NCBI GenBank assembly: GCA_043228905.1
Contig: JBHGNT010000414.1
Location: 1-27,272, forward strand
Reading direction: 5' to 3'
Source of the DNA: Azolla caroliniana
Lineage: Eukaryota > Plantae > Polypodiophyta
DNA: 27,272 bases
Below are positions 4,319 through 27,272 of this stretch, one piece after another. Under the pieces are notes generated by a model. The model worked only from the letters and a program-made list of their open reading frames with translations. It had not been told where the DNA came from and searched no databases. Both the position numbers and the translations under genes were made by a program. The first letter of the stretch is position 1. Each line of letters opens with the position of its first letter.

Positions 4319-4923
4319 TTGGAGTAATAAAAAAGGATCAAGGGCCAAGAGGACTCCCATTGCACTTCAGCAATGAATATCCCTAAAAAAATTCTTTATT
4401 TTAGCAATTATGATGAATAATTTCTAGAGCTTTTTGTTTTGTGAAGGAATTTCTTATCATGATATTAGTGGATAGGTTATTGAACACTATAAAGTGCGGG
4501 CACACCATGTTTGGATTATTATCAATCCTTAATTGGACTACATGCGACAAACAAACCCGCACGCACATGCACACTCACACCCACAACAAGGACCTTAATA
4601 TTGAGAACATGCAAAAATAAATTTATGTGAATATTAAATAACCACTTCATTAAATGAATATTGTTGACAGGTCCTTCCCTAAGAATATACCCACCATTTG
4701 AATATATCATCGTGAAGCCCTTCACTTTTATGGGCATGTATTGTATTCTTGACACTGTTTTGTATCCACCACTATGTATGTCCCTCAAGCGTATCTATAT
4801 AAATACATATCATCCAAACCAGAAACATACACACACACGCACACACAACCAAAGCTAGGACTTGAATAACTAGGACACAAGCAAAAATAAGATTACGTGA
4901 ATAATAAACCACCACTTAATAGA
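4319..4923 (+). promoter_or_regulatory. PR-1a upstream region with TATA box (TATATAAATA 4796-4805) and CA-rich leader
   Basis: TATA box ~120 bp before the ATG at 4924. The region is homologous to 10239-10733 upstream of the second PR-1 copy. Confidence 0.6.
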
Positions 4924-5250
4924 ATGAAGAACCAACACAATGACTTTATTCATCTTGCACACATTACTCTTCTATTTGTGTTGATGAATTGTGCCACAAT
5001 TGGCATGGCTCAATCAGTAAATGATGACTTTGTAAATGCTCACAATGTTGAGAGGGAAACATTAAGCATTCCACTTCTTGTGTGGAATGAAACATTGGCG
5101 ACCTACGCTTACCAATATGCCACAACACAGGATACAAATGAAGGTGGTTGCTCTGGCGCATTGGTCCATTCTGGTGGTCCATTGACTATACTCGTGGGAT
5201 TCATGAGTTTTTCGTATCTTTCTTTCTCACAATATATTTCACATTCTTAA
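4924..5250 (+). pseudogene. PR1: PR-1/CAP-family gene, N-terminal half only (signal peptide to HSGGP), fused at ~5183 to LTR sequence
   Basis: MKNQ..hydrophobic signal..AQSVNDDFVNAHNVER..LVWNETLATYAYQYA..C..LVHSGGP. The expected YGENL and GHYTQVVW motifs are absent, and the ORF reads on into LTR DNA to a stop at 5250. Confidence 0.85.
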
Positions 5251-5342
5251 TTGCCTTAGAATTTTCCTTCCTCCTAGTCCAAAACCCTAGTGGTTCCCAC
5301 CCGACTCACGCAACGATTCGGAGGCGAAAGGCATGACACAAG

Positions 5343-5360
5343 TGGTGAACCCGACGTGAA
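5343..5360 (+). other. Primer binding site, tRNA-Trp
   Basis: TGGTGAACCCGACGTGAA is complementary to the 3' end of plant cytosolic tRNA-Trp (..TTCACGTCGGGTTCACCA, recalled). It lies 4 nt after the LTR end CATGACA. Confidence 0.85.
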
Positions 5361-5376
5361 AATAGGTGGCAAGGAG

Positions 5377-7871
5377 ATGGAAAATCAACTGGAGGCTAAC
5401 AACATGATGATGATGTTCGAACGGATGCTTCAGGAACAACGTGTGATGTCGGAGATAGCGGCGGCAGTAGAGCGGCTCGTGCAACGGATCAGACAATTCA
5501 ACGGAAAGGACGTATCGCGCTATCTTCGGGACTACAAGGCGGAAATGATACGGTGTGGGATTTTGGAAGGACTACAAGTGACATCCTTCAACCGGGTGGC
5601 TACCGACGGGCTTCAAGCAAGTATCCACGAGCTACGACAACAGAATCTGACATGGGAAGCGTTTGAAGAGGCGCTAAAGACCACGTTCGCTATCGAGGAC
5701 TCCTCCAAGGCAACGCGGAGAGGATTGGGTAGAAACGCCGGACAAGGGGATGAAGGACCTCGATGTGTTTTCGGCATTCGAAAGTCGGTTCGGGAGGTTG
5801 TCTGCGAGAGATCAAGCTATCCTCGCACCGGACAAAGTTATCATGTTCTTACGAGCCGTAGACGTCCGGGACCGGAAGGATCTTGGAGTGCTTCTAGAGG
5901 ACACGAATACCGAGAGTGGCCTCACCGAAACATGGGAAAGTGTGCGAGATATCGTTGCGCGATACACAAAGAGGGGGCAATTGTTACGGACATGACCATT
6001 TAATATCCCATGGTGAGAATTTACCGTAGTATTCTATACACGTGGATAAGTGTGAGGGTTAAATGAGAGTGTAAAGAAGGGGAGGATTACTTTTAATCCT
6101 CGGGATTGAGACAACCCAATCGGTCAAGTGTGAACTTGCCTGGGGGCCTTGGGTATCGCTATAAATAAGAGGCCTAACTGCCCTCATTTAATCATCTTTT
6201 GATTACATCGAGACTCTGCTCTTGTGGTGGGTCAACTCTTGTAGCGAGTGCGCCAAAACCAGGTACAACTCGACGCCATGGCGGTGGTATGGGACGCCGA
6301 TCAAGGCTCGAGTCCGTCTCGATCCCTTCGCTCGGGGGTGGTCAGGTGGATCGGCACCCTTCTTTCTCTTTCTCCTTTCTATCTATCATTTGTTTATCCT
6401 TATCTTAAGCTTACTTTAGTACTTAGATCTCTAATAGCAATGGCTTGCCAATGAAGAAAAGAGGGTTTCGGAACCGATTCCGAAACCGAGATCCGGATCG
6501 GAACACCATCAACCGCGGGCTCAGGAGGCTACAACTGAGAAGGGAATCGACGCAACTACGGTGGAGCAATTGCTGAAGGAGATGGAAAATCTAAAAATCG
6601 CGATGGTGAAGAAGTCGGATGACCGTCCCACAAGTTCCAAGTACATGGACCGTCGATGCATATGGTGCGATAGCACCGAACATGATCGGAGGGATTGCGA
6701 CGAGCACAAGGAAGCGCTACGACGGGATCTTATCTACTACGAGGGAAATCAGATTCATTCGATGGACTCTCGGAAGTCACTCCGACTGAACTTCCGGAAA
6801 GGCGGCATGAAGAAGATCCTAGAGGAGGAAATAGCGGTGAAGAACAATTACGCGACAACCGCGGGAATACGTGTCGGGGAGTCATCGGGAGCAAAGGTGT
6901 CTTTTTGGCCGGAAGTGCTAGAAAACACCGAGAAAACCGACTCTAACGAGATCCGAAGTACCGCGGAAGGCATCCGGGAAGCTACGGGATGGGAGTGCCC
7001 CGTCGATAAGAATAGCGTGTTTGCTTTATGCCAATTGCATGAAGTGTATGTAGATGAGAAGCGACAACACACGGATGAGGCGACCGGTCCATCGAAGACA
7101 CCGGAAAGCTGGAACTCCATAGGTAAGGGAAAAGAAAAGATGATTCCGGCATTCAAGCTTGCCTCGGACATCGAACAACAAACGGACTTGAAAAAGGTGT
7201 TCGAGGAGAGAATCCTCGATAGCCGGGTAGATTTTTCGCTTCGAGAATTACTCGGAATAGCGAAGAAGGAGTTCCACGATCTTCTTGTGGATCTCGTGAA
7301 GAGAAAAATGCAAAGTATGGAGGAGAACGCTCCAAGGGTGAATGCAAATACCGTTCTAATGAATGACACTGAATTGGATGGCGAAATACCAAATTCTCAC
7401 TACACAAAACCACACTGGGAACGCGCAACTACGGAGACTCCGGTCCGAATCGGTAACATCAAAGAACCCATGCTAGCATTGATTCATTACGGATCGGAGA
7501 TCAACTTGATGTCCAAGGAATTCTACCAGAAGGGTAAGTGGCCTATTAACACCAATCATGGGTGGAAGATCCGGGCGGCCACTAAAGCAACAAAAGATCT
7601 ATTTGCGACTTGTCCGGATGTGACGGTGAAGATCGGGGATGTCGAGATCGTCCAAAATTTCTTCGTACAAGACGAGGTCTCACATTCCGTGATCCTCAGG
7701 CAACCTTTTATCACGGCATCACGGATGGAGACGAAGGTGCTCGATAGCGGTGCGGCTTTTGCGCAAATTCGGAGCCAAAACGGAGGGAAATCCGTCGAAT
7801 TCCTAATAGTGCAGGCAAATCATGAAAGGAACAAGAAAGATCACCTGTCCCAAACAAGAATGGATTTTTAG
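5377..7871 (+). pseudogene. gag: Family A gag-protease ORF, disrupted by a 7-bp deletion (~5725) and the solo LTR
   Basis: Removing 5982-6441 restores KRGQ|WLANEEKR..TTVEQLL. Contains the zinc knuckle CIWCDSTEHDRRDC, a degenerate protease motif ALIHYGSEINLM and VILRQPF. Stop TAG at 7869-7871. Confidence 0.88.
5982..6436 (+). mobile_element. Solo LTR (455 bp) of the chromovirus, GCAAT target-site duplication
   Basis: Near-identical to 15294-15748 and 21855-22309. GCAAT at 5977-5981 and 6437-6441. G-box CACGTG at 6039-6044 and TATAAATA at 6160-6167. Confidence 0.96.
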
Positions 7872-7925
7872 AGCGGACCGTTGCGGAGTGGGGAAATGAT
7901 AGTCCGAGAAGCCCTGATACCCCAC
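7862..7925 (+). promoter_or_regulatory. Candidate -1 ribosomal frameshift signal: G GAT TTT heptamer plus H-type pseudoknot
   Basis: The heptamer directly precedes the gag-PR stop. The -1 frame is the RT frame. Stem 1 is 7874-7883/7897-7906 and stem 2 is GTGGGG 7888-7893/CCCCAC 7920-7925. Confidence 0.75.
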
Positions 7926-9677
7926 ACAAGAAGAAACCTCTCGGTGCAAAACAAGTACGAATCGGTCCTGATGGGGCATCCACGTACACGGCCGTAACCG
8001 GAAGAATGAAGAAAGAATACCGAAAGGTGGAGGATAAGTTATGGTAGACATCAATAATAAAAGAAGACGAAGAAATCGTGGGCATAGTAGAAGAAGTGTT
8101 CTATGGAAACACACTACAACGGCTTGAAGAGCTCGCAGAAGATACAAGTCAGGGAAACCGGGTAATTCCGGTGGAGTCGGTCGAGATGTACGAGATCATT
8201 GTGAAAATGGAGCCGGATGCACTCCACAAAGAAGAAGCAATGGTAAGTATGAAATACAAGATCGTGGAGAAGAAAGTGAAACCGGCCACGGGACCGTTAC
8301 TCGTAGATAGTGAACAAAAGAGGAAAGAAGTCTCAAGGGATCCGACACTTCGGAAGTCCATGGATATCGGACATGCCTTCACGGATGAGACCCGGAAGAA
8401 ACTTCGGATCGGTGGAGGTGGGTTCCTATTAAAGAATGAAGAAGAACGATTCCGTGGGATGCTAGAGCGACATGGGAGAGCATTTGCATTTACATCGAAA
8501 GAAATAGGATGCGCTGACCTGAAGATAGTGGAGCCGATGATGATCTTCACGATTGACCATGTGCCATGGAACCTGAAGCCGATTCCGGTGCCACGGGCGC
8601 ATATTCCGAAAATCATCGACTTGCTCAAGGAGAAGGTGGCGATGGGGATTCTAGAGCCATCAAATGCTCCGTACTCAAATCGATGGTTTACGGTTCCGAA
8701 GAAGAATGGGTCACTCCGATTTATTCAAGATTTGCAACCGGTGAACAAGGTCACGATCCGGAACTCCGGAGTCGGTCCGATAGTGGACGAATTTGCGGAA
8801 GCATTTGCCGGTCGCGCGATATACTCCATCAGAGACCTATACTCCGGATATGACCAATTCCAACTAGCTGGGAAGAGCCGAGACATCACTACCATGCGGA
8901 CACCGATAGGATTAGTCCGGATGTGTACGCTACCACAAGGCGCGACGAACTCAGTCGCACATATGATGAATGCGATGAACAAGGTGCTCCGGGATTGCAT
9001 ACTGGAGATAACAATGCCGTTCCTAGATGACATTCCGATAAAAGGGTGTGCGGTGGAAGAAAAAGATGAAGCTATGGATGAACGGGGATGCTGAAGGTTC
9101 GTAGTCAACCATATCCGTGATTGTGAGAAAGTGTTACGGAAGTTAGAAGATGTGCATCTAACACTTTCTGGAGAGAAATCGGCATTCGGACAAGAAGAAA
9201 GATTGGTAGTCGGACATCTATGTGGGCCCTACGGCCGAAGACCATCACCAACCAAGATCGATGCGATTCGAGCTATGAAAGAAGTATGCGAGTCACAATC
9301 CGAAGTTCGAAGGTTTCTTGGAGCATGTGCATTCTACCACATATGGATTCCGCACTATGCACATATAGCGGACCCACTCTATCTTTTGTTGCGGAAGGGT
9401 AAGAAGTTTGAATGGAAACCGGAGCATACCAAAGCTGTGAAGAAGCTCAAGAAATCACTACGGAGGGCAAAAGCACTAAAGAAGCCGAACTATGACCAAC
9501 CGATCATAGTAACGGTTCACACAAGTCCAACCGGAATCGGATGGGTCATCAATCAAGCCGATCCGGAAGGTTCGCGATATCCGATCCGATTTGGAGCAAA
9601 GGTTCTCAACAAAAGGCAACGTGGATATGCACAAGTTAAAAGAGAATTATGGGGAGTCGTGTCAGCAATCAAATCGG
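7862..9677 (+). pseudogene. pol: Family A pol (RT and partial RNase H), in the -1 frame relative to gag-PR
   Basis: WNLKPIPVPR, RFIQDLQPVNK, DLYSGYDQF, LPQGATNS, PFLDDIPIKG, VRRFLG, TSPTGIGW. In-frame stops at ~8045 and 9092, truncated at 9677. Confidence 0.92.
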
Positions 9678-9679
9678 GC

Positions 9680-9870
9680 TCTTAGAACAAAACTCCATAG
9701 AAAACTTATATTTCACATGATATTCCATGTCCTCCGTCTTTCCAATCATATGTGTCAGTTGTGGAGCTATAAGAAGATTCACCATCCCAATAGAAACAGT
9801 TGCAAACAGATATGAACTGATTCCAGCATTTGTAAAAACAGTTGGGGAGAAAAAGAAAAAAAAACCGACC
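9680..9870 (-). pseudogene. Possible degenerate fragment of an MFS monosaccharide transporter (pGlcT/SGB1-like)
   Basis: FFFSPTVFTNAGISSYLFATVSIGMVNLL, with FLWSF downstream in another frame, resembles the recalled motif VFYFSSTVFKSAG..SDLA.V.VG.VNLL..MDK.GRK.LLLWSF. Confidence 0.45.
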
Positions 9871-10238: not shown

Positions 10239-10733
10239 TTAGGGTAATAAAAAGGGTCAAGGGCCAAGAGGACTCCCATTGTTCTTCAACAATGAATATC
10301 CAAAAAACAAATCATTTATTTTAGTAATTGTGATGAATAATTTCTAGAGCTTGTTGTTTTCTGAAGGAATTTTGTTATCACGATATTAATGGATAGGTTA
10401 TTGAACACTATAAAATGTGGGCACACCGTGTTTGGATTATAATCAATCCTTAATTGGACTACATGCGACAAACACACATGCACACACATGCACTCTCACA
10501 CCCACAACAAAGACTTTAATATTGAGAACGTGCAAAAATAATTTTAAGTGAATATTAAACAACCACTTTATTAAATGAATATTGTTACCATGTCCTTCCC
10601 TAAGAATATATCATGGTGAAGCCCTTCACTTTTATGGGCATGTATTGTATCCTTGACACTATTTTGTATCCAGCACTATGTATGTCCCTCAAGCGTATAT
10701 ATATAAATACATATCATCCAAACCACAAACATA
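10239..10733 (+). promoter_or_regulatory. PR-1b upstream region with TATA box (~10697-10708)
   Basis: Colinear with 4319-4829 at roughly 90% identity by eye. Confidence 0.65.
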
Positions 10734-10757
10734 TCATCCTCAATGCTCACAATGTTG

Positions 10758-11902
10758 TAGTAACAACCTCTGAAATTGCGTGGACAAGTCTTTTAGATGC
10801 TGAAAACTGTTTAATTAGCATTAAGGGAATGAAAGTAGAATCGAACGAGGTATGCTACTACAAACTAGAGCACGGAAGGGAAAAAGGTGAGCAACCAGTC
10901 TTTCAAAGAGAAAAAACGATTAGGCTGATCGTAAAAACTGGCAAGAATATGATTATTGACCCTAAGCCAAGGGAGATCACACCGGCGACAGTGTGTTGGC
11001 CTATAGAAGGGCATTTGGATCAGTTATCATGGGACCCAGCCAGGTATTTTTGGAGAACTCAAGGAAAAACTAATGGGGAAAAGCTGGTTCAATTTTTCAG
11101 GTATAACACGAAGATTGGGAGGCAAATTCTTCTAGAACAAAAACATGACAAGGTTGCGGCAAGGAAATTTTGGATGCAGGAGGGCATAAGTGAAAGGAGA
11201 CTAGATAAATTCTGGAAAATGATATGGCATGACAAATATGACCGCAAGATAATGATGTGTTTATGGCTTATTGCACATAGAGCCTTGCCGGTAGGGACGT
11301 GGGGTAAAGGCCCCAATGTAGACTCTAGATGTACTGCATGTGGACAGATAGAAAGCATCTCCCATTGTCTATGGGAATGTCGCAATGCAATGGCTGTATG
11401 GGGAAGGGCACTTCGTTTGCTTTGCCATGCCTCTAGTTCGTTCACCCTCAACTTGGGACATGCTTGTTGGATGTCTCTTGACGTTGATGTGGCGACATAT
11501 GATAGCACATGCAATGCTAAGTACAGAGGGGAGAATGGCATTGTTCGGCTGATCACTGACAATGGGGTACCTACAACTTGTGTACAGAATCAAAAACTTG
11601 AAGATCTTTGGATGTTGCTTGCCCCCATTACTATATGGCATATATGGACACCAAGGTGTACCAAGGTATTTTCCGCACACAAACGCCCTCCAGCTAAATC
11701 GATTAAGCTAATTTGGCACACACTCATAACTACACTAAGAGCTCAATATGAGCGGATTAATGGTACTAATGATGCTGCAGACCTAATGAGGCTGAATTTT
11801 CGAAAAAGATGGTGTACGACACCGACGGCCGCAGCAAATGGAATGGATATATTATGGAAGTATGATGTACCCAGATGGTTGTTTCCCCCTCCCATTAGTT
11901 GA
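10758..11902 (+). CDS. LINE ORF2 C-terminal region (zf-RVT), uninterrupted
   Basis: FWKMIW..LWLIAHRALPVG..CTACGQIESISHCLWEC..WKYDVPRWLFPPP, homologous to the C-terminus of the 1158-3599 ORF. Confidence 0.85.
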
Positions 11903-12127
11903 ACGAGGGCTGTGAAAGACATGGCAAGTGGGATAGTGAAGGTAGGTGATGTATCTGAAAGGATGGTTTGAGTCATATGTAAAAGTGTAAGATAAATAAG
12001 TGAGATCTCGTATGTAGGCTAGGATAATCTTGGCACGGCCTACCTGAGAAAGGGATCGTGTTCATGATTATTTTAACTAATGGAGTATATTCTCTTTTGG
12101 GAAAAAAAAAAGAAAAGAAAAGAAAAA
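10758..12127 (+). mobile_element. 5'-truncated L1-like LINE with A-rich tail and 13-bp TSD
   Basis: GCTCACAATGTTG at 10745-10757 and 12128-12140. A-rich tail at 12102-12127. The ORF contains zf-RVT. Confidence 0.95.
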
Positions 12128-13205
12128 GCTCACAATGTTGAAAGGGAAACATGAAGCATTCCACTTCTTGTGTGGAATGACACATTGGCGACCTCCGCTT
12201 ACCAATATTCTAGAACGCAGAAAAGAGTGCTTGGATCTCAGAAAAGAGTGACTAAGATTATAAGACCAACACTTGCGCTACTGGGCAAGTGTGTGGTCAC
12301 TACACCCAAGTGGTGTGGGCCACCACACTTCATGTTGGATGTGTTTCTCATGTATGCACCTCCACCCAAGGTGCAACATACATTATTTGCAACTATGATC
12401 CCCCAGGAAATATCTCTGGCGAACGCCCATATTAAGTTTCGGTCTGATCATTATACATATCCACCCACTTGCACTTGTGCCCTACACCAATACATATACA
12501 CCATCATCCCAAATAATCTTGCAATTGCTACAAATTGCCCTCCTTTGTTTTTAGGTATTTGTATCCATGTGAAATCATTGTTATTACTGTTTCTTGTTTT
12601 GTTTCAAATGCTCGAGAAATGATTGTTTTGAGTTAACTAACTCTTGTTGTGTGCTTGTAATAATTGCTAATGTAGAGAACAAACGCCATGGCTTTAAAGT
12701 TGTCGACAATATTTGTTATGACATGAAAGCCTTTTAAATTTTGATAGAGTAGGCCATGCTTGATCAAAATTATGTTTCTATTGGTAGATATTGCAATTTT
12801 TTTATTCCATAAAGCATAATAAAAAGGATTAAATTATGTACCCATAACATTCCTACTTAAAACATTTCCACAACTGTGCGGCGATTTATTGTGAGTAGAA
12901 TTAGATTGCTAATTATGAAAACGCATCATCTATAGAAATGTCTTCCCCTATTGAATATATGGATGTATTTTGTTCATTCTCGCAATCAAATGATGAGTGC
13001 AAGTGGAACACTTCAAGGGTTCAGCCAGAGATTCACTTGCGTAATTGTGGTTGACAAAACTATACTAGACTCTAGCAACGTTTTGTTATACTTAAAATTA
13101 ATGGATGTGAAGTATACGAGGGACCTTGGAGTACTTTTATAAATTGAAGAAGTTCTGTTTACACATTGGTCTGAAGGAGGCAAAGCAAGTGAACAATTTC
13201 ATAAG

Positions 13206-13746: not shown

Positions 13747-14642
13747 TGTCGTAGTGTAATTCGTACACTACGTGAAAGATTACATTTTTGGTCTCTCCAG
13801 ATAGGACATGGAGTACCCGGTGAGAACCAGAAGAAGGAACCAGTAAGGACCGAAACCGGCAAGGAGACCCAACAAGAGCCGGATGAAGAAGGCCGGTGAG
13901 AGTCGGTGAGAAACAGACGAAGAGATCGGTAAGGAGGTCCCGATAAGAACCGGACAAAGAAAACTATCAAGCACCGGATGAAGCAAAACCGGAAAGAGCC
14001 GGATGAAAAAGGCCGGTGAGAGTCTCTCACCGGATGAAGAGACGTATTTGTGAATAGAAGAAAGTATAAAAATATATATATTACATGCATAGGGCAAGAT
14101 TCGAACCTTGCACCTCCATGTTAATAATGTTAAGCCTTATCATTATAGTAGGGTATCATGAATTTTAAGTTATACTAAACTTTATTCCATGTAAAATTTC
14201 TAGACGTGCATGGTAAAAATGTTATTCATGCATAGACACTCGAGTTCAAAAAGAAAAGATGAGATAGAAAGCTAATCATGCACATGCAATGTGCATGAAA
14301 ACAAAAGATAGAAAAAGCATGATGCTTGCATGTGATAAACTTAGACTCTTCCAACACTATATAACGAAGAGAGAAAGATGTATAGAGGTTTTTGATTATT
14401 TTACAAGGGTTGATTAATATAATATAATCGTGGGGGTCCACGAATTTGCTAACTATTATTCTCTCTTAATTTGAGTACTCACTAATACACTATACTCGTG
14501 GGATTCACGAGTTTTTCATATCTTTCTTTCTCACAATATATTTCACATTCTTAATTGCCTTAGAATTTTCCTTCCTCCTAGTTCAAAACCCTAGTGGTTC
14601 CCACCCGACTCACGCAACGATTCGGAGGCGAAAGGCATGACA
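13747..14642 (+). repeat. Family A 5' LTR (~896 bp)
   Basis: Starts TGTCGTAG and ends CATGACA before the PBS. Internal direct repeat at 13874-13904 and 13994-14024. TATA-like CTATATAA at ~14357. The left boundary is inferred because no partner LTR is in the window. Confidence 0.75.
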
Positions 14643-14646
14643 CAAC

Positions 14647-14664
14647 TGGTGAACCCGACGTGAA
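14647..14664 (+). other. Primer binding site, tRNA-Trp
   Basis: TGGTGAACCCGACGTGAA, identical to 5343-5360. Confidence 0.85.
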
Positions 14665-14680
14665 AACGGGTGGCAAGGAG

Positions 14681-15293
14681 ATGGCAAATCAACCGGAGGC
14701 TAACAGCATCATGATGATGTTCGAGCGAATGCTTCAGTAAAAACATGCGATGTCGGAGATAGCGACGGCAGTAGAGCGGCTCGTGCAACGGATCGGACAA
14801 TTCAACGGAAAGGACGTATCACGCTGTCTTCGAGACTACAAGGCGGAAATGCTACGGTGCGGGATTTTGGAAGGACTACAAGTGACATCCTTCAACCGGG
14901 TGGCTACCGACAGGCTTCAAGCAAGTATCCACGGGCTACGACAACAGAATCTGACGTGGGAAGCGTTTGAAGAGGCGCTAAAGACCACGTTCGCTATCGA
15001 GGACTCCTCCAAGGCAACGCGGAGAGGATTCGAGGATTGGGTAGAAACGCCAGACAAGGGGATGAAGGACCTCGATGTGTTTTCGGCATTCGAAAGTCGG
15101 TTCGGGAGGTTGTCTGCGAGAGATCAAGCTATCCTCGCACCGGACAAAGTTATCATGTTCTTACGAGCCGTAGACGTCCGGGACCGGAAGGATCTTGGAG
15201 TGCTTCTAGAGGACACGAATACCGAGAGTGGCCTCACCGAAACATGGGAAAGTGTGCGGGATATCGTTGCGCGATACACAAAGAGGGGGCAAT
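14681..15293 (+). pseudogene. gag: Family A gag N-terminal part (continues at 22315-22499)
   Basis: ATG at 14681, premature TAA at 14738-14740 (GAA in copy 1), then FNGKDVSR..WEAFEEALK. Confidence 0.85.
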
Positions 15294-15748
15294 TGTTATG
15301 GACATGACCATTTAATATCCGATGGTGAGAATTTACCAGAGTATTCTATACACGTGGATAAGTGTGAGGGTTAAACGAGAGTGTAAAGAAGGGGAGGATT
15401 ACTTTTAATCCTCGGGATTGAGACAACCCAATAGGTCAAGTGTGAACTTGCCTGGGGGCCTTAGATATCGCTATAAATAAGAGGCGTAGCTGCCCTCATT
15501 TAATCATCTTTTGACTACATCGAGACTCTGCTCTTGTGGTGGGTCAACTCTTGTAGCGAGCGCGCCAAAACCAGGTACGACTCGACGCCACGGCGGTGGT
15601 ATGGGACGCCGATCAAGGCTCGAGTCCGTCTCGATCCCTTCGCTCGGGGGTGGTCAGGTGGATCGGCACCCTTCTTTCTCTTTCTCCTTTCTATCTATCA
15701 TTTGTTTATCCTTATCTTAAGCTTACTTTAGTACTTAGATCTCTAATA
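15294..15748 (+). repeat. Chromovirus 5' LTR
   Basis: TGTTA...TAATA, followed by the PBS. Confidence 0.95.
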
Positions 15749-17437: not shown

Positions 17438-20400
17438 ATGGCACAAATTAACGTCCCGATGTCATCCGCTCAAGCGGAAGGAACTCAAGGAAATCCTCCT
17501 GGACAAATGTCCACTGAGATGTATTTGGCACAAATAACCCAATACCTTAGTTTCACCGCTCAACAGATGACCGAACTTCGGCAATCTCAGAGTGCTCTTG
17601 AGGCACGTGTCATTAGTCTACAATGTGAGACTAATAGACCTGATGAGCGACAAGGTGAACCATCATTTGTCGTTAAGCCATTTACGGGAGACAAAAAGGA
17701 AAGAACCGAAGAAGCAATCTGCACATGGTTGGGATGATGGGAGTCTCATTTTGAGCTCTATCCCACGCCAGATAGTACGAAGATTGCATATGTCGGCCGA
17801 GAACTCGGGGGTAAGGCCGCCACCTGGTGGCGTGGGCTCCGTACTATGGGGAAATTGCCCGATACCTGGACAGATTTTGTCATGGTTTTTAAGGGTCAAT
17901 TTCTGCAACCTCCCTCTCGAACCGAGGCAGCACAAGCTTTAATGAACCTCTCTAGCAAGAAATTTTCCTCGCTAGAAGACTATGTTCACCATGCTAGAAC
18001 CCAAATTCAAAAATCGGGTCTAGAAGGGGCAATTGGTTGATAGCTTGTTTTGTCAATGGCATCCCCAATTCGGACTATCACTGGATAGTGCACGATAAGG
18101 ATCCAAAATCCTTCGAAGAGGCCGTTGAAATAGTTCTTCGCTATCAACGCACTTCGAAGAAGGACCATAACAAACCCAATGAAGCGCCCGGGACTAAGCA
18201 GTCGCAATTTGTTGGGAAACGCAAGATACCCAACGAATTCCTGGATTGTGATTGTAAGTGACAACATCCTTTTTGTGTATTCTACAAAAAGAAGGGTCAT
18301 ACAAAAGATCAATGTCGAAAGCTCCAACGGAAAGAGCATGACAACAAAGCTAAAGCTGCAGACCATAAAGGTCAGATTCCTAATTTCCTTCAGGTCTATA
18401 CACATCATTTAAGTAATTGTCAATGTTCTTTCCCTCACTATGTATTGGGTCCCAATGAGTTACTATGTGCAAACGGGTATATCAATGGATCTCCCGTACA
18501 ATTTTTATTTGATTCGGGAAGCTCACACAATTTTGTGAATGATCGTTTGGTTCAGATATGGGGAATCCAACCCACCGTAAGGGATCACACCTACACGGTG
18601 CACTTGGCTGATGGAAGAGTACAATACATCAATGGGGCGATTCATTCATTAGGAATTTCTATTGATACTTATATAGAGGAAGTAGACTTCCATGTAATGA
18701 ATCTTTGTACCACCGATGTAATACTAGGTTATCCCTGGTTTTATAATAAAAACTCTTCTTTATTTATTGATTGGGTTCGTCATTCCATTTCTTTTGTACT
18801 GAACGATTGTATGCATTTTATTCAACGTGTAAAAAAACGATCCCTCTCGATTGTTTCCTCGTGTCCATCAATATCCGAGTTGTCTTGTTCTACATTATTT
18901 TATTGTGTACTTGATCCGGACATTCACATTTACAATATCGATAATGTCCTGGTTCAATTAACATATTTTGAACAACAACTTAATGAAATCTTAAATGATT
19001 TTCATGATGTTTTTCCAAGTGAACTACCTGATGGGTTACCTCCTAAACGTAATATAGACCATCGTATAGATATTGTACCTGGTGTTGCACCAATAAGTAT
19101 ACCTCCGTATCGCTTAAGTCGATCCGAAGAAGATGAGGTATCTAAGCAACTCAAGGACTATTTACGAATGGGTTATATACGTTATAGTAAATCTCCATGG
19201 GGTGCACTAGTTCTCTTGGTTAAAAAGAAAGAGGGCACATGGTGTATGTGTATTAATTACCGATGCTTGAATAAAGTGACGATCAAGATTTCGTACCCAT
19301 TGCACTGGGCTGACGATCTAATTGACCGTCTCGAGGGAGCTCGGTATTTTATGAAACTTGATCTCCGTACTAGCTACCATCAAATACGAATAAGTGAGGA
19401 CGATGTTCCTAAAACGGCATTTCGTACGGGCTTTGACCGTTACGAGTTTTTGGTTATGCCTTTTGGTTTGACCAATGCTCTGGCTACATTTCAACAAGAA
19501 ATGAATGACATTTTCCGAGAACAACTTGGAAAATTTGTCGTTATTTTCTTGGATGATATTTTAGTTTATAGCCGTACATTACAAGAACATGCTAAACATG
19601 TCCGCTTTGTTTTACAAACATTGCGTGACAAACAGTTTTATGCAAAGATCTCAAAATGTGAGTTCTTCAAGAAATCAATTACTTATCTAGGACATCTCAT
19701 AACCGAACGAGGAGTTGAAATTGATCCTTCTCGCATTGAGAAAATCAAGCTTTGGCCCACTCTTCGGAATATTCGAGAAGTTCGATCATTCCTTGGTTTT
19801 GTCGGGTTTTTGCGAAAATCTCCTCGTAATTACTCCCAATTCACGACGCCGTTTACTGATCTTTTAAAAGGTCAAACGCATAAGTCTACAAAACCTATTG
19901 TTTGGAATGCTACACTAGACCTTGCCTTTAAGGAACTCAAGGACCTGGTTTGCAAGGCTCCTTCACTTCTTTTACCTGATCCTTCAAAACCTTTTGAGGT
20001 TGAAACCGATGCAAGCGATTATGCTATAGGTGTTGTCTTGTATCAAGATGCTAAACCAATAGCATTCGAGAGTAAGAAACTTGATTCTGCTCAATGTCGG
20101 TATACCGTTCAAGAAAAGGAATTATTTGCAGTTATACATGCGCTCAAAACATGGCGCCATTATCTTTATGGAAATCACTTTGTGGTAACTACGGACCACG
20201 AGTCCTTGAAATATTTTTGTGATCAACAAGACCTGAAAGGTCGTAAGGCACGATGGGCTGATCTCATCCAGGACTTTGATTTTTCCATACGATATCGTAA
20301 AGGTTCCATGAACACTATCGCTGATTCACTAAGTCGCATCCGTGAAGTTAACATGCTTAGCTTCACTGAAATAACATCAGATCTTTATGATCACCTTCGA

Positions 20401-21859
20401 GGAAAGTATCTTGATGACAGTTATTTTGCAAAATACTGGGCAAGAGTTGAGTTTGGAACAGACACCACCACATCCTCGAAGGAATACTTCCACATTGCTA
20501 ACGGTTTGCTCTACCGTAATGGAAGGGTTTGTGTTCCAGATTTACCCGAGGTCAAAAAGAGGATTCTTTTTTAATGCCATGATGCACCCTCAACAGGGCA
20601 CCCTGGAATACATCGTACACTCGTTCTCATGTCCACTCAATTTTATTAGCCTAAGATGCGTCCTGACATACATAGCTATGTGACTAAATGTCACCAGTGT
20701 CAGGTTAACAAAGCCGAGCGACTTAAAGCCGCAGAACTTTTACATCCCTTGGACATTCCCAATAATAACTGGGAAAGTATATCCATGGATTTTATTGTTA
20801 GCCTTCCTCGCACCCAAAAAGGTCATGATGCCATCTGGGTTGTCGTTGATCGACTAACTAAAATGGCCAGATTTATTGCTACTAAAACCACGGTAACAAC
20901 TCCTGAATTGGCTTACCAATTCGTTGACGAATTCTTTCGTTTTTATGGGTTACCGATGGATATCGTGAGTGATCAAGATCCAAAGTTTACTAGTGACTTC
21001 TCGACGCAAGTCTTTAAGAAGTTAGAAACTACGTTGAGCATGAGCTCCACGGATCATCCTCAATCCGATGGATAGACAGAACGAGTAAATCAAATTATTG
21101 AGGACATGCTTCGAGCATACGTTGGTGCAAAACCAACAAAATGGGAACGGTATCTCCCAATTTTGGAGTTTGCTTATAATAGCTCCAAGCATACGTCGAC
21201 GAGATATAGTCCTTTTATGTTGATGTATGGTTTTCAGCCACGAGCCCCGATTGATGTTAATATACATCATGATGAGTTGCGAAGTACGCAAAACTTTCTT
21301 CGGGATATGCAAGATATATTGCATATTGCACGAGATAATATAAAAACAGCTCAAGATAGAGCGTGTTTTTATGTCGATCATCATAGGCAACCTCGTGTAT
21401 TCAACCCTGGACAGAAGGTATTTTTACGTGTACCTCATAATTCTAAGACATTGTCTACGGGTAAGTGTGCTAAGTTAGCCCCACGGTTTTGTGGACCTTT
21501 TACAATCCTCAAACGCATTGGGTCATCAACCTATCGTCTCGCTCTTCCCGATGGTGTCGGAATTCATCCAGTCTTTCATGTGAGTCGTCTAAAAGAACTT
21601 CTAGGTTATGGCGACAATACAGTTACAACTGAAACTCTGGTTACTTCTGAAGAATTATCTTCTAAACCACATGTACCAGAAAGAATTCTCGATGTTAAAA
21701 CAAAAAAATTACGTACTAAAGAAATTCCGAGAATTTAAAATAAAATGGATGGATAAATCAATAAAAGATGGCACATGGGAACGCGAAAATACTCTCAGAA
21801 CTAATTTCCCTAACTTTCCATTCCAAGAGTGCAATGTTTTAAAGAGGGGGAGTATGTGA
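17438..21859 (+). pseudogene. gag-pol: Chromovirus gag-pol polyprotein with several stops and two frameshifts
   Basis: Gag (KPFTGD, AATWW), degenerate knuckle [14 protein letters not shown] in the same frame as pol, protease [21 protein letters not shown], RNase H ETDASDYA, integrase HHCC and ISMDF/IVSDQD, GPF motif, chromodomain PERILD..FKIKW..TWE. Confidence 0.95.
21841..21852 (+). other. Polypurine tract
   Basis: AAAGAGGGGGAG just before the 3' LTR. Confidence 0.9.
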
Positions 21860-22309
21860 TGGGCATGAACATTTAATATCCCATGGTGAGAATTTACCGT
21901 AGTATTCTATGCACGTGGATAAGTGTGAGGGTTAAACGAGAGTGTAAAGAAGGGGAGGATTAGTTTTAATCCTCGGGATTGAGACAACCCAATAGGTCAA
22001 GTGCGAACTTGCCTGGGGGCCTTGGGTATCGTTATAAATAAGAGGCCTAGCTACCCTCATTTGATCATCTTTTCACTACATCGAGACTCTGCTCTTGTGG
22101 TGGGTCAACTCTTGTAGCGAGCGCGCCAACACCAGGTACGACTCGACGCCACGACGGTGGTATGGGACGCCGATCAAGGCTCGAGTCCGTCTCGATCCCT
22201 TCGCTCGGGGGTGGTCGGGTGGATCGGCACCCTTCTTTCTCTTTCTCCTTTCTATCTATCATTTGTTTATCCTTATCTTAAGCTTACTTTAGTACTTAGA
22301 TCTCTAATA
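21855..22309 (+). repeat. Chromovirus 3' LTR
   Basis: About 19 substitutions versus the 5' LTR over 455 bp (by-eye count). Confidence 0.95.
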
Positions 22310-22499
22310 GCAATGGCTTGCCAACGAAGAAAAGAGGGTTTCGGAACTGATTCCGAAACCGAGATCCGGATCGGAACACCATCAACCGCGGGCTCGAGAA
22401 GCTACAACTGAGAAGGGAATCGACGCAACTACGGTGGAGCAGTTGCTGAAGGAGATGGAGAATCTAAAAATCGCGATGGTGAAGAAGTCGGATGACCGT

Positions 22500-23581
22500 T
22501 GTCGTGGCTTGGCTCGCCTAGAAGCGTAGCGTTGCGTAGACAAAAGAAATCGTGAAAGTGAGGAAGGAATCACTGGGATTATGGACGGAAGAGACGAAAG
22601 AGTAGAGATAGATAAATAGTGATCAACAAGATATGACAAGATAGGATATAGAATGATATTTGAAGCAATAAAAGAGATTTATAATTATTTGATAAAAGAG
22701 TTACAAAATGATTGTGCACATCGTTGAACCTCCGAACTTTGTCTTGCAAGGTAATCGCTCTTCTCTTTCTTGATCGTAGACCATTACAATCTTCACTTCA
22801 ATATTTTGATGAAGATAAGGCTCGAACCGCCTCCCTCTTGTTGAGAGTTGACCACCACGACCGCCAAGCTAGAGCTCTACGTTTATGTTAAACTTCTTCC
22901 CTTCTTTCTCTATTTTTATGGTATCTCTTATGAAATACATAATTTGATTGATATCTCATACATATCTCTCCTTTTGATCTTCTCTTTCACCCTTTAAATA
23001 GGTGCCCCCATGCATATGATGCATTGGAGGGTACAAGTCATGCATGTAGTGCATGAAATGCATGTGATGCATGATCGCCATTTGGCGTTCATGCATTACA
23101 TGTGATGCACGATAAACATCTCGCTCATTTGAGCTTTTATGTATGAAACAATATATGCAATAAGAATAAACATGAAAATATAATCTTAAAGAGAAAGGGC
23201 CTAGCTTAATGGTAGGTGTGTTGACTTTGGTGTATGAGGTTGTTGATTCGAGTCTCAAAATACTACAACATACAACTTTATTTTTATATCATGAAGCAAA
23301 TCCTTTATCTAATATAAAGTATATATAAAGTATGCTTTATTTTATGTATATTACTAGTATAGAGTAAATGGTAAGATTTGAGAGTCATAGGGTGGGGTTA
23401 TTGGTTCAAGTCCTCTCTTATTCGTGTAATATAATATATTTATCTATATATATATATTATTTTTCTTTACATATATATAATATTATCATATGTGTTGTTA
23501 TAAAACATTATCAAATGTTATTTTAGTTACGTATTTATCTTATTGTAGACTTTTAATGTGAAGCTTTCGTACTTCACGACA
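22500..23581 (-). repeat. Family B 3' LTR (1082 bp)
   Basis: TGTCGTG...CACGACA perfect terminal inverted repeat. Minus-strand CCTATTTAAAGGG TATA at 22990-23002. Confidence 0.88.
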
Positions 23582-23593
23582 TCCACCCCCTCT
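23582..23593 (-). other. Polypurine tract
   Basis: AGAGGGGGTGGA on the minus strand, abutting the LTR. Confidence 0.85.
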
Positions 23594-23621: not shown

Positions 23622-26600
23622 CTATCTTTCATCTTCATGTTGATCTATCGGAGGAGGTTCAAGCTCAAACCTTTTCTTAAATACTTTTATCCTCTTTCCA
23701 GCTACCACGTTTAGGATTAGTGTCCCATCCAATTCACTAAGCTTATAAGTAAAGTTATCATATACTTTTCTTACTATATAAGGCCCAAACCATCTTTCAG
23801 CGAACTTGCGGACGGTGTTATGTTGATTATCTAAACTGCTATCGTACACGAGCACCCAATCTCCTTCTTCTATTTTCTTAGGTCGAATTCTATGACTTTT
23901 ATCAAAAAGGATTTTATTCTTTAGTTGAGCCTCCTTCAATCGTTGGGCTGCTATTTCTATATCTTCAGGTCGACGCTCTAATTCTTGAATTCGCAAAGCA
24001 AGTAATTCTTCTCTGCTCACCTCTTCTCTCCATGGAATAGATATCCATGACATAATTGATTCTTCTATCGACATGATGGGCTTTTGACCAAGTATCAATT
24101 CAGCTGGCATGTATCCTGTTACTGAACTATGAGTTGTTCGATCCGCCCATAGTGCATAAGGTAGCATGCGTGGCTAATCTCTTATTTTACCTTTACAACT
24201 TTTCACGATCGCCTTAACTATTGAGCTATGTCCTCTTTCAATCTTTCCATTGGCTTCTGGATTATATGCAGTTGTAAGTGATAATTTGACCCCTATTCGG
24301 CTGAAGAATTCTCTAGCTTCATCAGAGTCGAGTTCTCCTTTATCTGCAATTATTTTACCAACACACCCGTAACGACATATTACATCTTCTAACAAAAATT
24401 TACATACAGCTCTAGTTGTTTTTTGTCGTAGTGGTCTTCCTTCTACTTGGTTTGTAAGGTCTTCTCTTGCTAGTACTAAATATCGCATTTGACCTTCCCC
24501 AAGTGGCATTGTCACTAAATCAACCATCCATTTGTAGTGCATTGATGATGAATATGTTGGTTTTAGCTCATCTCGATACCGGATAGTTGAATACCTCTGG
24601 CAAACCTCACAGGTTTCCACAAATTTCGTTACATCTTTATACATATGTGGCCACCAATACTTTTCTTTCAACTTCATAAATGTCGCCCATATGCCTCTAT
24701 GTCCTGCCCACAAACTATCATGGAATTCATTAATTAATTTTCTCTTAATGTCATCCTTACAAATGACTCGAAGAGGATTTTCGGTTGGCCTTTTTGGACG
24801 CCTCCATAAATGCCCTTCATGTAAAAAAAACTTGAATGCTCGTCTTCGAAATTCATTTAATTGTTTCTTCGACCATGATGGGTTGGCTTCTTGAGTCTTT
24901 AGAAAATTTCCTATTTCTAACCATTGACCTTCATACTCTGTGTCTTTGAACATTATACTTACATTAAACTCATCATGAGGCGTCATAGATTCTTGATGAG
25001 CAAATTGATGGCTTGTAGTTGCCCAGTTCTTATCTTCAGTTTGCATCACCTTTTCATTTATGAACCTTGCCCTTGACAACATATCTGCAACTGGGTTTTC
25101 TTTTCCCTTTATATGCCGCAATTCTGGGTTCATGGTTCTGATGTATGCAATCCACCGAAGCATTGCAATATCTGGTGTCGTGCAACTTGCTACCATTCCA
25201 ATGAGTGGCAAACAATCTGTTTCAACCACTACATCTGCTCCGATCAAGTAATCTCTATCTGTTTTTAATGCAGTAAGCAAACCCCACAATTCTCGTTTAA
25301 CTTGTGCATAGTTTCTTTGTCTTTCATTTAATATCTTTGCTCCATATCTGATAGCATATCGATGTTGGTCTTCATCTTCTTGGTTGATAACCCAACCGAT
25401 CCCGATTGGGCTAGTATCAACTGTTACTATAATTGGTCTTTCACCTTTGTAGTCTGGTTGACGAAGAACTGGTGCTTTCAGTAATGCTTCTTTCAGCTGT
25501 TGAACAACTTGTGTATGTTCATCAGTCCAAATAAACTTCTTTCCTTTTCTTAAAAGTTGGTAGAGAGGATCTGAGACATGTGCAAAGTGTGGTAACCAAA
25601 TATGATAAAACACACATGCACCCAAAAATCTTCTCACCTCTGTTACCGAGTCGCAAACTTCCTTCATATTTTGTATTGCATTAATTTTGATCGGCGAAGG
25701 CTTCCTCCCATACCACCCACACATATGACCAACTATTAGAACTTCGTTTTGCCCAAAGCAAGACTTTGTTCCTGATAGTGTCAAATGTACCTGCTCAAGC
25801 TTATTTAAAATACTTTCACATTCATTAATGTGATCCATCACAAACTTTCTGCAACCATTTCCAACCATAGTCTCATCTTTCTCTCTTTCTAAGCATCCCT
25901 TAATAGGAATATCATCTAAAAATGGCATAGTTACCTTTGGGATGTATTCATGTAGAACTTTGTTCATTGCATTCATCATATGAGCAACCGAATTCGTCGC
26001 ACCTTGAGGTAGAGTGCACATTCGAACCAACCCAATTGGTGTTTTCATTGTTGTGATATTGCGACTATCAATTGCTAGTTGAAATTGGTCGTATCCTGAA
26101 TATAGGTCTCCCATAGAGTAAATCGCTCTTCCAGCAAACGCTTCCGCAAATTCATCAACGATCGGTCCGATTCCTGCATTTCGGATTGTGACTTTGTTGA
26201 CTGGTTGTAGATCTTGAATGAATCTTAGAGAACCATCTTTCTTTGGAACTGTGAACCATCTATTGGAGTATGGTGCATTTGAAGGCTCTAAAATCTTTAT
26301 CTTGACTTTATCCTTCAGCAGCTCCAACAATTGAGGTAATCGAGCTCTCGGTACTGCAATAGGTTTAAAATTCCAAGGAATATGAGGGATAGTAAATATT
26401 ACCATTGGCGTCACCACCTTTGGATTTACACAACCAATCTCCTCAGCTTTGAATGTGAACGCTTTCCCATGCCTAAAGATCATTTCTTTGAAAGTCGCGA
26501 TCTCTGATTGTAGAAGAAATTCACCCCTTCCGATTCTCAAGTTATTTATTGTCTCCGAAGTGAAGTGATGTCCGATCTTCTCTATTGGTCGAAGCATAGG

Positions 26601-27085
26601 CTCGGTTGCTGCTGCCTCCATCTTCTCTTCACTACCAATAGGTAATGGTACTGCAGCAGGTTTGACCTTTTTATCTATTGTTTTGTATTTTGTATTACAT
26701 AAACTTTCTACTTCTTCATATTTACAATTATACCTATCAATCTCATAATACATATCAATTGAGTTTACATGTATCTTTCTAACATTCTCATCATCTTCTT
26801 TCAAATACATTTCTAACTCTTCTAAAGTATTTGCAAAAGAAATTTCTTCCATAACACTTTCAATCTGCTCTTCTTTTTCAAGTACTCCATTATCCTTCAA
26901 TGCTTGCTGAAACAGATTAGCATTCTTTTTCAAGTTCCTCTTGCATTCATACATCCTAGTCACACATATAGCACCACTTTCAGAAACATGAAATGACTTA
27001 TTCATATGTTGTAATGCCCTATATGAGGGTCTTTTAATAATGGGACTATTCCAACCCTCACTCGCAACAGTCCTAGTCAAAAACC
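23622..27085 (-). pseudogene. pol: Family B pol (RT-RNase H-integrase, no chromodomain), single in-frame stop at 24174-24176
   Basis: PFLDDIPIKG, TVDTSPIGIGW, VETDC, HDSLWAGH..CEVC, WMVDL/IIADKGE/KIERGH, WFGPY. IRD*PRML (probably TGG>TAG) joins the two listed ORFs in frame. Confidence 0.95.
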
Positions 27086-27087
27086 TG
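27023..27087 (-). promoter_or_regulatory. Candidate frameshift signal of family B (GGTTTT-TGA plus H-type pseudoknot)
   Basis: Stem 1 GGACTGTT/AATAGTCC and stem 2 GTGAGGGTT/GACCCTCAT, at the position homologous to 7862-7925. Confidence 0.72.
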
Positions 27088-27272
27088 ATTATCAAAATCA
27101 TCACAATCTTTTGGTATTGAATGATCACGAAGCTCTTGCTTGTTCCTCTCATGATTTGGGCGAACTGTCATAAATTGTACAGTTCGTCGTCCATCTTGGC
27201 TACGGATTTTCGCATAGGCAGAACCATTGTCGGGGACTTTGGTCTCCATCCGTACCGCTGTAATGTATGGTT
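27073..27272 (-). CDS. Family B gag-protease C-terminal end (partial)
   Basis: PYITAVRMETKVPDNGSAYAKIRSQDGRRTVQFMTVRPNHERNK aligns with family A PFITASRMETKVLDSGAAFAQIRSQNGGKSVEFLIVQANHERNK, in a different frame from pol. Confidence 0.85.
   Translation of the reverse strand, partial: PYITAVRMETKVPDNGSAYAKIRSQDGRRTVQFMTVRPNHERNKQELRDHSIPKDCDDFDNQVFD

Follow-up and report, generated by a model that had tools for sequence, protein, structure and literature searches.

A Phygy-like LTR retrotransposon family of Azolla caroliniana with pol natively in the +1 register and a likely −2 frameshift at the protease/RT junction

The stretch of Azolla caroliniana DNA analysed here (27,272 nt; the window) ends within a retroelement whose reverse transcriptase (RT) frame is out of register with its gag-protease (PR) frame, which raises the question of whether one copy has decayed or the register belongs to the whole family and, if the latter, how Pol is made. 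On the minus strand from 27087 the junction reads CAG GTT TTT GAC TAG, followed by a 31-nt hairpin (27073-27043); the gag-protease frame ends with these codons (stop at 27075-27073), and the RT-RNase H-integrase frame is +1 relative to it. A preliminary description made from the sequence alone gave this sequence, two stems and the +1 register, all of which were confirmed on the minus strand at 27087-27023, as were its pol-frame peptides, FLTRTVA in this family (family B, +1) versus FLERTVA in a second one (family A, −1). The features are as follows.

27073..27270, minus strand: 3' end of the family B gag-protease ORF, ending in …HERNKQELRDHSIPKDCDDFDNQVFD*; 724 aa in whole copies
27079..27086, minus strand: slippery octamer AG_GUU_UUU, at which a −2 shift is proposed; UGA follows immediately in the −1 frame
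27074..27078, minus strand: spacer GACUA, 5 nt (−1 relatives: 6 nt after the heptamer)
27043..27073, minus strand: stem 1, with 8-9 bp if a pseudoknot forms and up to 12 bp if it is a plain hairpin
27053..27061, minus strand: 5' arm of stem 2, GUGAGGGUU, within the stem-1 loop
27023..27031, minus strand: 3' arm of stem 2, GACCCUCAU
23622..27086, minus strand: pol (RT, RNase H, integrase), lying in the +1/−2 frame and open for 1154 codons in whole copies
23582..23593, minus strand: polypurine tract of family B
22500..23581, minus strand: 3' LTR of family B (TG…CA), followed by ACGG (NCGN target site)
7862..7925, plus strand: family A comparator with G_GAU_UUU, UAG, 6-nt spacer, the same two stems and pol in −1

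The family B element is truncated by the contig end at 27272, carries a premature stop in the integrase region of pol (24174-24176) and sits in a family A gag fragment (window 22480-22500, 21841-22140). The family A site reads G GAT TTT TAG AGC, and this site with its local −1 register was seen in 30 family A loci with a few point variants. In the window's family A copy, stem 1 is weakened by private changes at 7875-7905 and folds, at −4.1 kcal/mol, no better than shuffled sequence, and pol meets a stop after 173 nt. More pieces of family A lie at 5185-9700 and 14489-15579.

According to the preliminary description, the family B copy had lost a G, and its family should read CAG GGT TTT TGA with pol in −1. 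The genome contradicts this: the 22-base site as written occurs 74 times exactly, the extra-G form not once. Because exact patterns are biased, a second search was anchored on the flanks only, with 45-65 bases left free; among the 96 copies it returned, 95 have the same length, one is shorter and none is longer, and AG_GUU_UUU was counted by eye in about 85. The −1 frame shuts after two codons in 30 of 30 family B loci, so the downstream ORF does not lie in −1 as in canonical −1 programmed frameshifting (PRF), and the +1 frame is open to the end of the locus in 16 of the 30. Of 20 copies retrieved, 11 of them chosen for their open frames, 16 have an LTR pair (98.1-100% identity, five pairs at 100%), and eight have both ORFs (724-aa gag-PR and 1154-codon pol) whole. 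The lost-G hypothesis was rejected; young copies with identical LTRs, too, have both ORFs whole in the +1 register; G_GGU_UUU sites do exist in this material, as single copies of other, −1 families (L225, L226). The preliminary description had tied its reading to the extra G or, failing that, to some alternative slippery site: the former is absent from the family, but the latter is there, AG_GUU_UUU, and fits a −2 shift. The feature itself is real; it had been mis-explained, and it is more interesting than was proposed. A minority of family B copies (L082, L084, L088, L089 and others), and also the diverged lineage L091 described below, have six U (GUU UUU UAY), a site that would permit both −2 and +1 re-pairing. 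A search of the host genome for additional −2-type families gave eight hits versus six in a reversed control (two B variants, one of them assigned from the flank-anchored search, three copies of −1 families and three without a readable protease end), another pattern search gave nine hits, all B variants where readable, and no locus was found in the viral contigs searched. Two contigs assembled from sequencing runs span the family B junction without gaps; one run listed as possible RNA is probably DNA.

Family B is a Ty3/gypsy LTR retrotransposon with PR-RT-RNase H-integrase order, TG…CA LTRs, a primer binding site (PBS) and a polypurine tract. A DHGS protease motif lies upstream of the pol domains, and a Pfam scan of the window copy gave the order RVT_1, RT_RNaseH, Integrase_H2C2, rve, with no chromodomain or extra family. 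The elements measure 7.9-8.0 kb, the PBS is complementary to the 3' end of a host tRNA-Trp(CCA) gene plus CCA, and the 5' flank is NCGN in 15 of 15 full LTR pairs, with an exact 4-bp duplicate in 10 (read by eye). By its NCGN site, tRNA-Trp PBS, size (range 7.7-10 kb) and lack of an extra domain, family B is Phygy-like. Phygy is a non-chromovirus Ty3/gypsy clade which in its published entry likewise has a 4-bp NCGN target site, a tRNA-Trp primer site, a length of about 7.9 kb and an interior filled by the coding region (PMC6317226); its ORF organisation is tabulated there as 'ND' (supplementary file 3), and the cited entry, unlike the elements described here, includes neither a PR/RT −1 signal nor a −2 variant. 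Three tandem tRNA-Trp(CCA) genes about 700 bp apart are found at L190 (G000:C16:5033645-5036661). Also present in the window (18262-21738, minus strand) is a decayed, unrelated Ty3/gypsy element that carries PR-RT-RH-INT and looks chromovirus-like by eye.

The hairpin behind the family B site is predicted to be stable on its own (31 nt, −12.5 kcal/mol, z −4.8, equalled by 0 of 200 shuffles), whereas the entire 86-nt region folds no better than shuffles (z −0.7). Its stem-1 arms are 27073-27066 and 27050-27043. A substitution at 27051, private to the window copy, breaks one stem-1 pair that is intact in the 29 other family B copies compared. Stem 2 was matched in 6-10 of 1000 shuffles of the downstream 32 nt for three B-type representatives. 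The site could adopt either a pseudoknot or a plain 12-bp hairpin. The preliminary description also held that stem 2 changes on both arms with respect to family A; the arms do change together, but its exact pairing is one column off, as in a gapless alignment GTGGGG of family A sits over TGAGGG of family B. Its claim that the same structured element stands behind the protease/RT junction in both families holds, and the element covaries across many more families. In 23 representatives, exactly 5 nt separate the U run from a gapless 31-nt stem-1 block, and among 22 distinct sequences 92% of stem-1 cells are paired versus 21-55% for slid controls, with two-sided changes in five of nine pairs; the ninth pair is present in just 8 of the 22, the pair count was reached by 43 of 500 shuffles, and these counts are to be read knowing that the stem also encodes a conserved peptide and that related rows inflate them. 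Stem 2 clearly beats shuffles in B-type and A-type rows only, many −1 relatives giving weak values (p 0.02-0.53), and MAFFT introduced no gaps for this stem. A shared, covarying structured element at the protease/RT junction lends good support to recoding there.

The relatives of family B use the other direction. Among 80 metagenome loci, 54 have a readable junction; 51 of these are in −1, nearly all with G_GAU_UUY before pol, two are B-type with both frames open and one is decayed. Among homologous gag-PR proteins, which include some named from Riccia, Physcomitrium and Adiantum, the usual end is DF or a position just past it: of 246 proteins 111 have a readable tail, 60 ending in DF, GF or NF and 34 within one to seven residues after DF or GF, with two ending in QVF-x (one re-binned by hand) and 15 otherwise. 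No second VF lineage was evident among these 111 tails, although protein ends do not reveal frames. A −1 frameshift with G_GAU_UUY, often a stop directly after it, a 6-nt spacer and a conserved stem appears to be clade-wide at the Phygy-like PR/RT junction (loci L092-L167, L192, L229-L242 and window 7862-7925), and no description of it was found in the literature searched. In a tree of the protease region with 122 rows, all rows ending in QVF group in a single clade (SH-aLRT 100) that is nested among those ending in DF; the tree is a quick search with midpoint root and no bootstrap, and the exact sister of family B is not resolved in it. Another young family of the same genome (L229, L230, L242) has CAG GAT TTT TAG ATA before the stem and pol in −1, and relative to this family, family B is one base shorter from the Gln codon to the stem. 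The nested clade and this one-base difference indicate that the +1/−2 register arose once from a −1 ancestor. A single copy of yet another family (L227, G000:C12:13518535-13518554), with a partly decayed stem, shares with family B the letters CAGGTTTTT followed by 5 nt and the stem but reads TCA GGT TTT TAA with pol in −1, i.e., one cassette in two registers.

The two B-type metagenome contigs (L090, L091) share the site and register of family B, and their proteases are 95% (L090) and 82% (L091) identical to it. In pol, dN/dS against family B is 0.028/0.207 for L090 and 0.115/1.153 for L091, and among 12 gapless family B copies pN/pS is 0.09 for shared versus 0.34 for singleton changes (Fisher p 5e-4). 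As judged from these substitutions, family B pol is under purifying selection in its +1/−2 register, with dN/dS of about 0.1 against a diverged sister lineage, and the register has been retained through a synonymous distance above 1. In principle, family B could be a defective lineage in which a frameshift became fixed and which is copied in trans by −1 families, several of which have open pol in the same genome; this would be the lost base of the preliminary description transferred to the whole family. Such a dead family would not show a pol dN/dS of about 0.1 over a synonymous distance above 1 or the strong depletion of shared non-synonymous changes, and its young copies keep 1154 open codons; this explanation is largely refuted and we regard it as extremely improbable. 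Pol-frame stops lie 10 codons 5' of CAG in a young family B subfamily and 7-8 codons 5' of the U run in L091, which confines the frame change to the last ten or so gag-PR codons. Within this window CAG GUU UUU is common to family B and L091. The linker 3' of the site is open in both, differing by an in-frame 8-codon indel, and stem 1 pairing survives changes between them that alter the peptide (NSP to SGP).

We conclude that family B, a recently active Phygy-like family with pol natively in +1 (equal to −2), probably makes its Gag-PR-Pol by a programmed −2 frameshift on AG_GUU_UUU. What comparison of sequences establishes is the register, the site, the spacer, the covarying stems, the purifying selection on pol and a single derived origin within a −1 clade. 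In the proposed mechanism the majority of ribosomes would terminate at UAG and release Gag-PR, while a minority would pause at the hairpin or pseudoknot predicted to drive the shift 5 nt downstream, the P site then holding Val and the A site Phe. This tRNA-Phe would move two bases back and re-pair fully with the U5 run; re-pairing at the P site, on AGG, would be poor, as with the identical PRRSV octamer, and this poor GUU-to-AGG step counts against a −2 shift. A −1 slip in family B would end at UGA at almost no cost, and the −2 product, …Q-V-F-L-T-R-T-V…, would be collinear with …D-F-L-x-R-T-V… of the relatives. In both types the U5 run stands 5 nt before stem 1, and −1 in the relatives and −2 in family B would reach the same three bases, the A-site tRNA-Phe landing on the first three U of the run. 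From the spacers, 6 nt in the −1 relatives versus 5 nt in family B with both shifts on the same U, we infer −2; the ancestral −1 signal was likely turned into −2 once, by a net change of one base 5' of the U run. This agrees with engineered systems in which −2 is optimal at spacers 1-2 nt shorter than −1, with hairpins or pseudoknots (PMC3458567). With G_GUU_UUU, shortening the spacer by one base produced 16-41% −2 in rabbit lysate, but in wheat-germ extract, a plant system, −2 was not noticeable (PMC6735917), and the wheat-germ result is the main published point against the −2 reading of family B.

A +1 shift yields the same net frame as −2, with products that differ by one residue, and a programmed +1 frameshift at the same place, in which the P-site tRNA-Phe moves forward on UUU_N while the ribosome is slowed by the stop and the structure, is the alternative to be taken most seriously. 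Ty1 and Ty3 use +1. In L091 and about ten B copies the site is UUU_UAC/UAU, where +1 re-pairing would be perfect; UUU_Y is prone to +1 in bacteria, and pseudoknots can stimulate +1, as in antizyme (both PMC5009743). The main family, however, has UUU_GAC, on which tRNA-Phe would have to sit on UUG, the upstream AG_GUU is retained in both B lineages, and the geometry of U5, 5 nt and stem is the same as in the −1 relatives, which suits a backward pull. We therefore consider +1 slippage unlikely. Pol might instead be made as a separate protein, by termination at UAG and reinitiation at a nearby upstream AUG in the pol frame; such an AUG precedes the stop by 26 nt in family B and by 17 nt in L091, and both have a purine at −3. 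These AUGs differ in position between family B and L091 and derive from acidic D/N-D codon pairs, such an AUG is expected by chance in 23-32% of 9-codon gag-PR windows, and the kept slippery run, spacer and stems would be left unexplained. A free Pol would also need another route into the particle, and reinitiation seems to us quite improbable. Splicing could also join gag-PR to pol, with CAG|G as acceptor or donor; CAG|GT does look like a splice junction, and Ogre elements have an intron between PROT and RT (PMC6317226). In family B, however, the ORFs overlap, leaving no spacer to remove and nothing like the non-coding intron of Ogre; GTTTTT is a poor donor, the acceptor side is purine-rich in L091, no donor of at least 7/9 occurs in the frame-joining phase in family B, L090 or L091, and the only GT shared in that phase, 256 codons upstream, makes a poor donor. 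Splicing is accordingly given very little credence.

Known −2 systems resemble the proposed family B shift in part. At the shift site it is like arterivirus nsp2TF (PRRSV, SHFV), with AG_GUU_UUU, full A-site and poor P-site re-pairing and an immediate −1 stop, and it has RG_GUU_UUU with the downstream ORF in −2, as arterivirus-type sites do. On AG_GUU_UUU, PRRSV is described as shifting −2 at about 20% and −1, into a stop, at about 7%, stimulated by nsp1beta with PCBP on CCCANCUCC 10 nt downstream and by no RNA structure (PMC7618472, PMC6675879). Unlike in arteriviruses, the C-rich motif is lacking in family B, a covarying hairpin or pseudoknot 5 nt downstream is the proposed stimulator, and the shift product would be the essential Pol; the absence of CCCANCUCC, which PRRSV needs, from family B, L090 and L091 counts against −2. 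By this analogy family B would resemble the arterivirus system at the shift site without being a member of arterivirus-type −2 PRF. It is also like engineered −2 shifts, where bringing a 3' RNA structure nearer by one base converts −1 to −2 at a U-rich site (PMC3458567, PMC6735917), and like the antizyme cassette, which shifts −2 in budding yeast (PMC3458567, PMC5009743); unlike these reporters and foreign-host cases, the family B shift would be natural, selected and accompanied by −1 relatives. MMTV and HTLV pro-pol, with a −1 shift after protease, place the shift between protease and RT as well, and the relatives' heptamer G_GAU_UUU is the known plant-virus −1 site of pea enation mosaic virus; unlike family B, all three use −1, and MMTV and HTLV need two shifts (PMC5009743). 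Closer in direction are the phage Mu tail genes and Trichomonas vaginalis virus 1, in which −2 gives access to a downstream essential ORF, and TVV2-4 use −1, i.e., the direction varies among kin there too; unlike family B, neither is a retroelement, and the cited passages name no RNA-structure stimulator for them (PMC5009743). The −2 cases listed in that 2016 review are phage Mu, arteriviruses and Trichomonas virus 1, and plant elements with pol in +1 are given there as unresolved puzzles (PMC5009743). The literature searched yielded neither a −2 retrotransposon nor a description of the PR/RT junction in Phygy, subscription journals and bioRxiv supplements being outside its scope.

Few natural −2 frameshifts are known, and the best-studied eukaryotic case in the sources cited needs a protein stimulator. 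On balance we lean towards the wider reading that family B represents a natural, RNA-structure-driven −2 frameshift, essential to retroelement replication, which came from the relatives' −1 signal by a one-base register change with the U5-spacer-pseudoknot geometry fixed, and that a PR/RT frameshift would be clade-wide in Phygy-like elements of liverworts, mosses and ferns. A single genome contains sister elements with this structure in both registers, −1 and +1/−2, both under selection, so natural sequences can serve to test the switch on plant ribosomes; if the reading is true, these elements would be a living test of the mRNA-tension model on such ribosomes. The result would also fill the 'ND' given for Phygy ORF organisation in the reference table of plant retrotransposons, and annotators should not take +1 junctions of this kind for decay. 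Elsewhere in the window are two LINE-type RT fragments with zf-RVT domains (1158-3599, minus strand; 10604-11902, plus strand) and, on the plus strand at 4891-5250 and 12124-12220, two copies of a short exon that presumably resembles a PR-1/CAP secreted protein.
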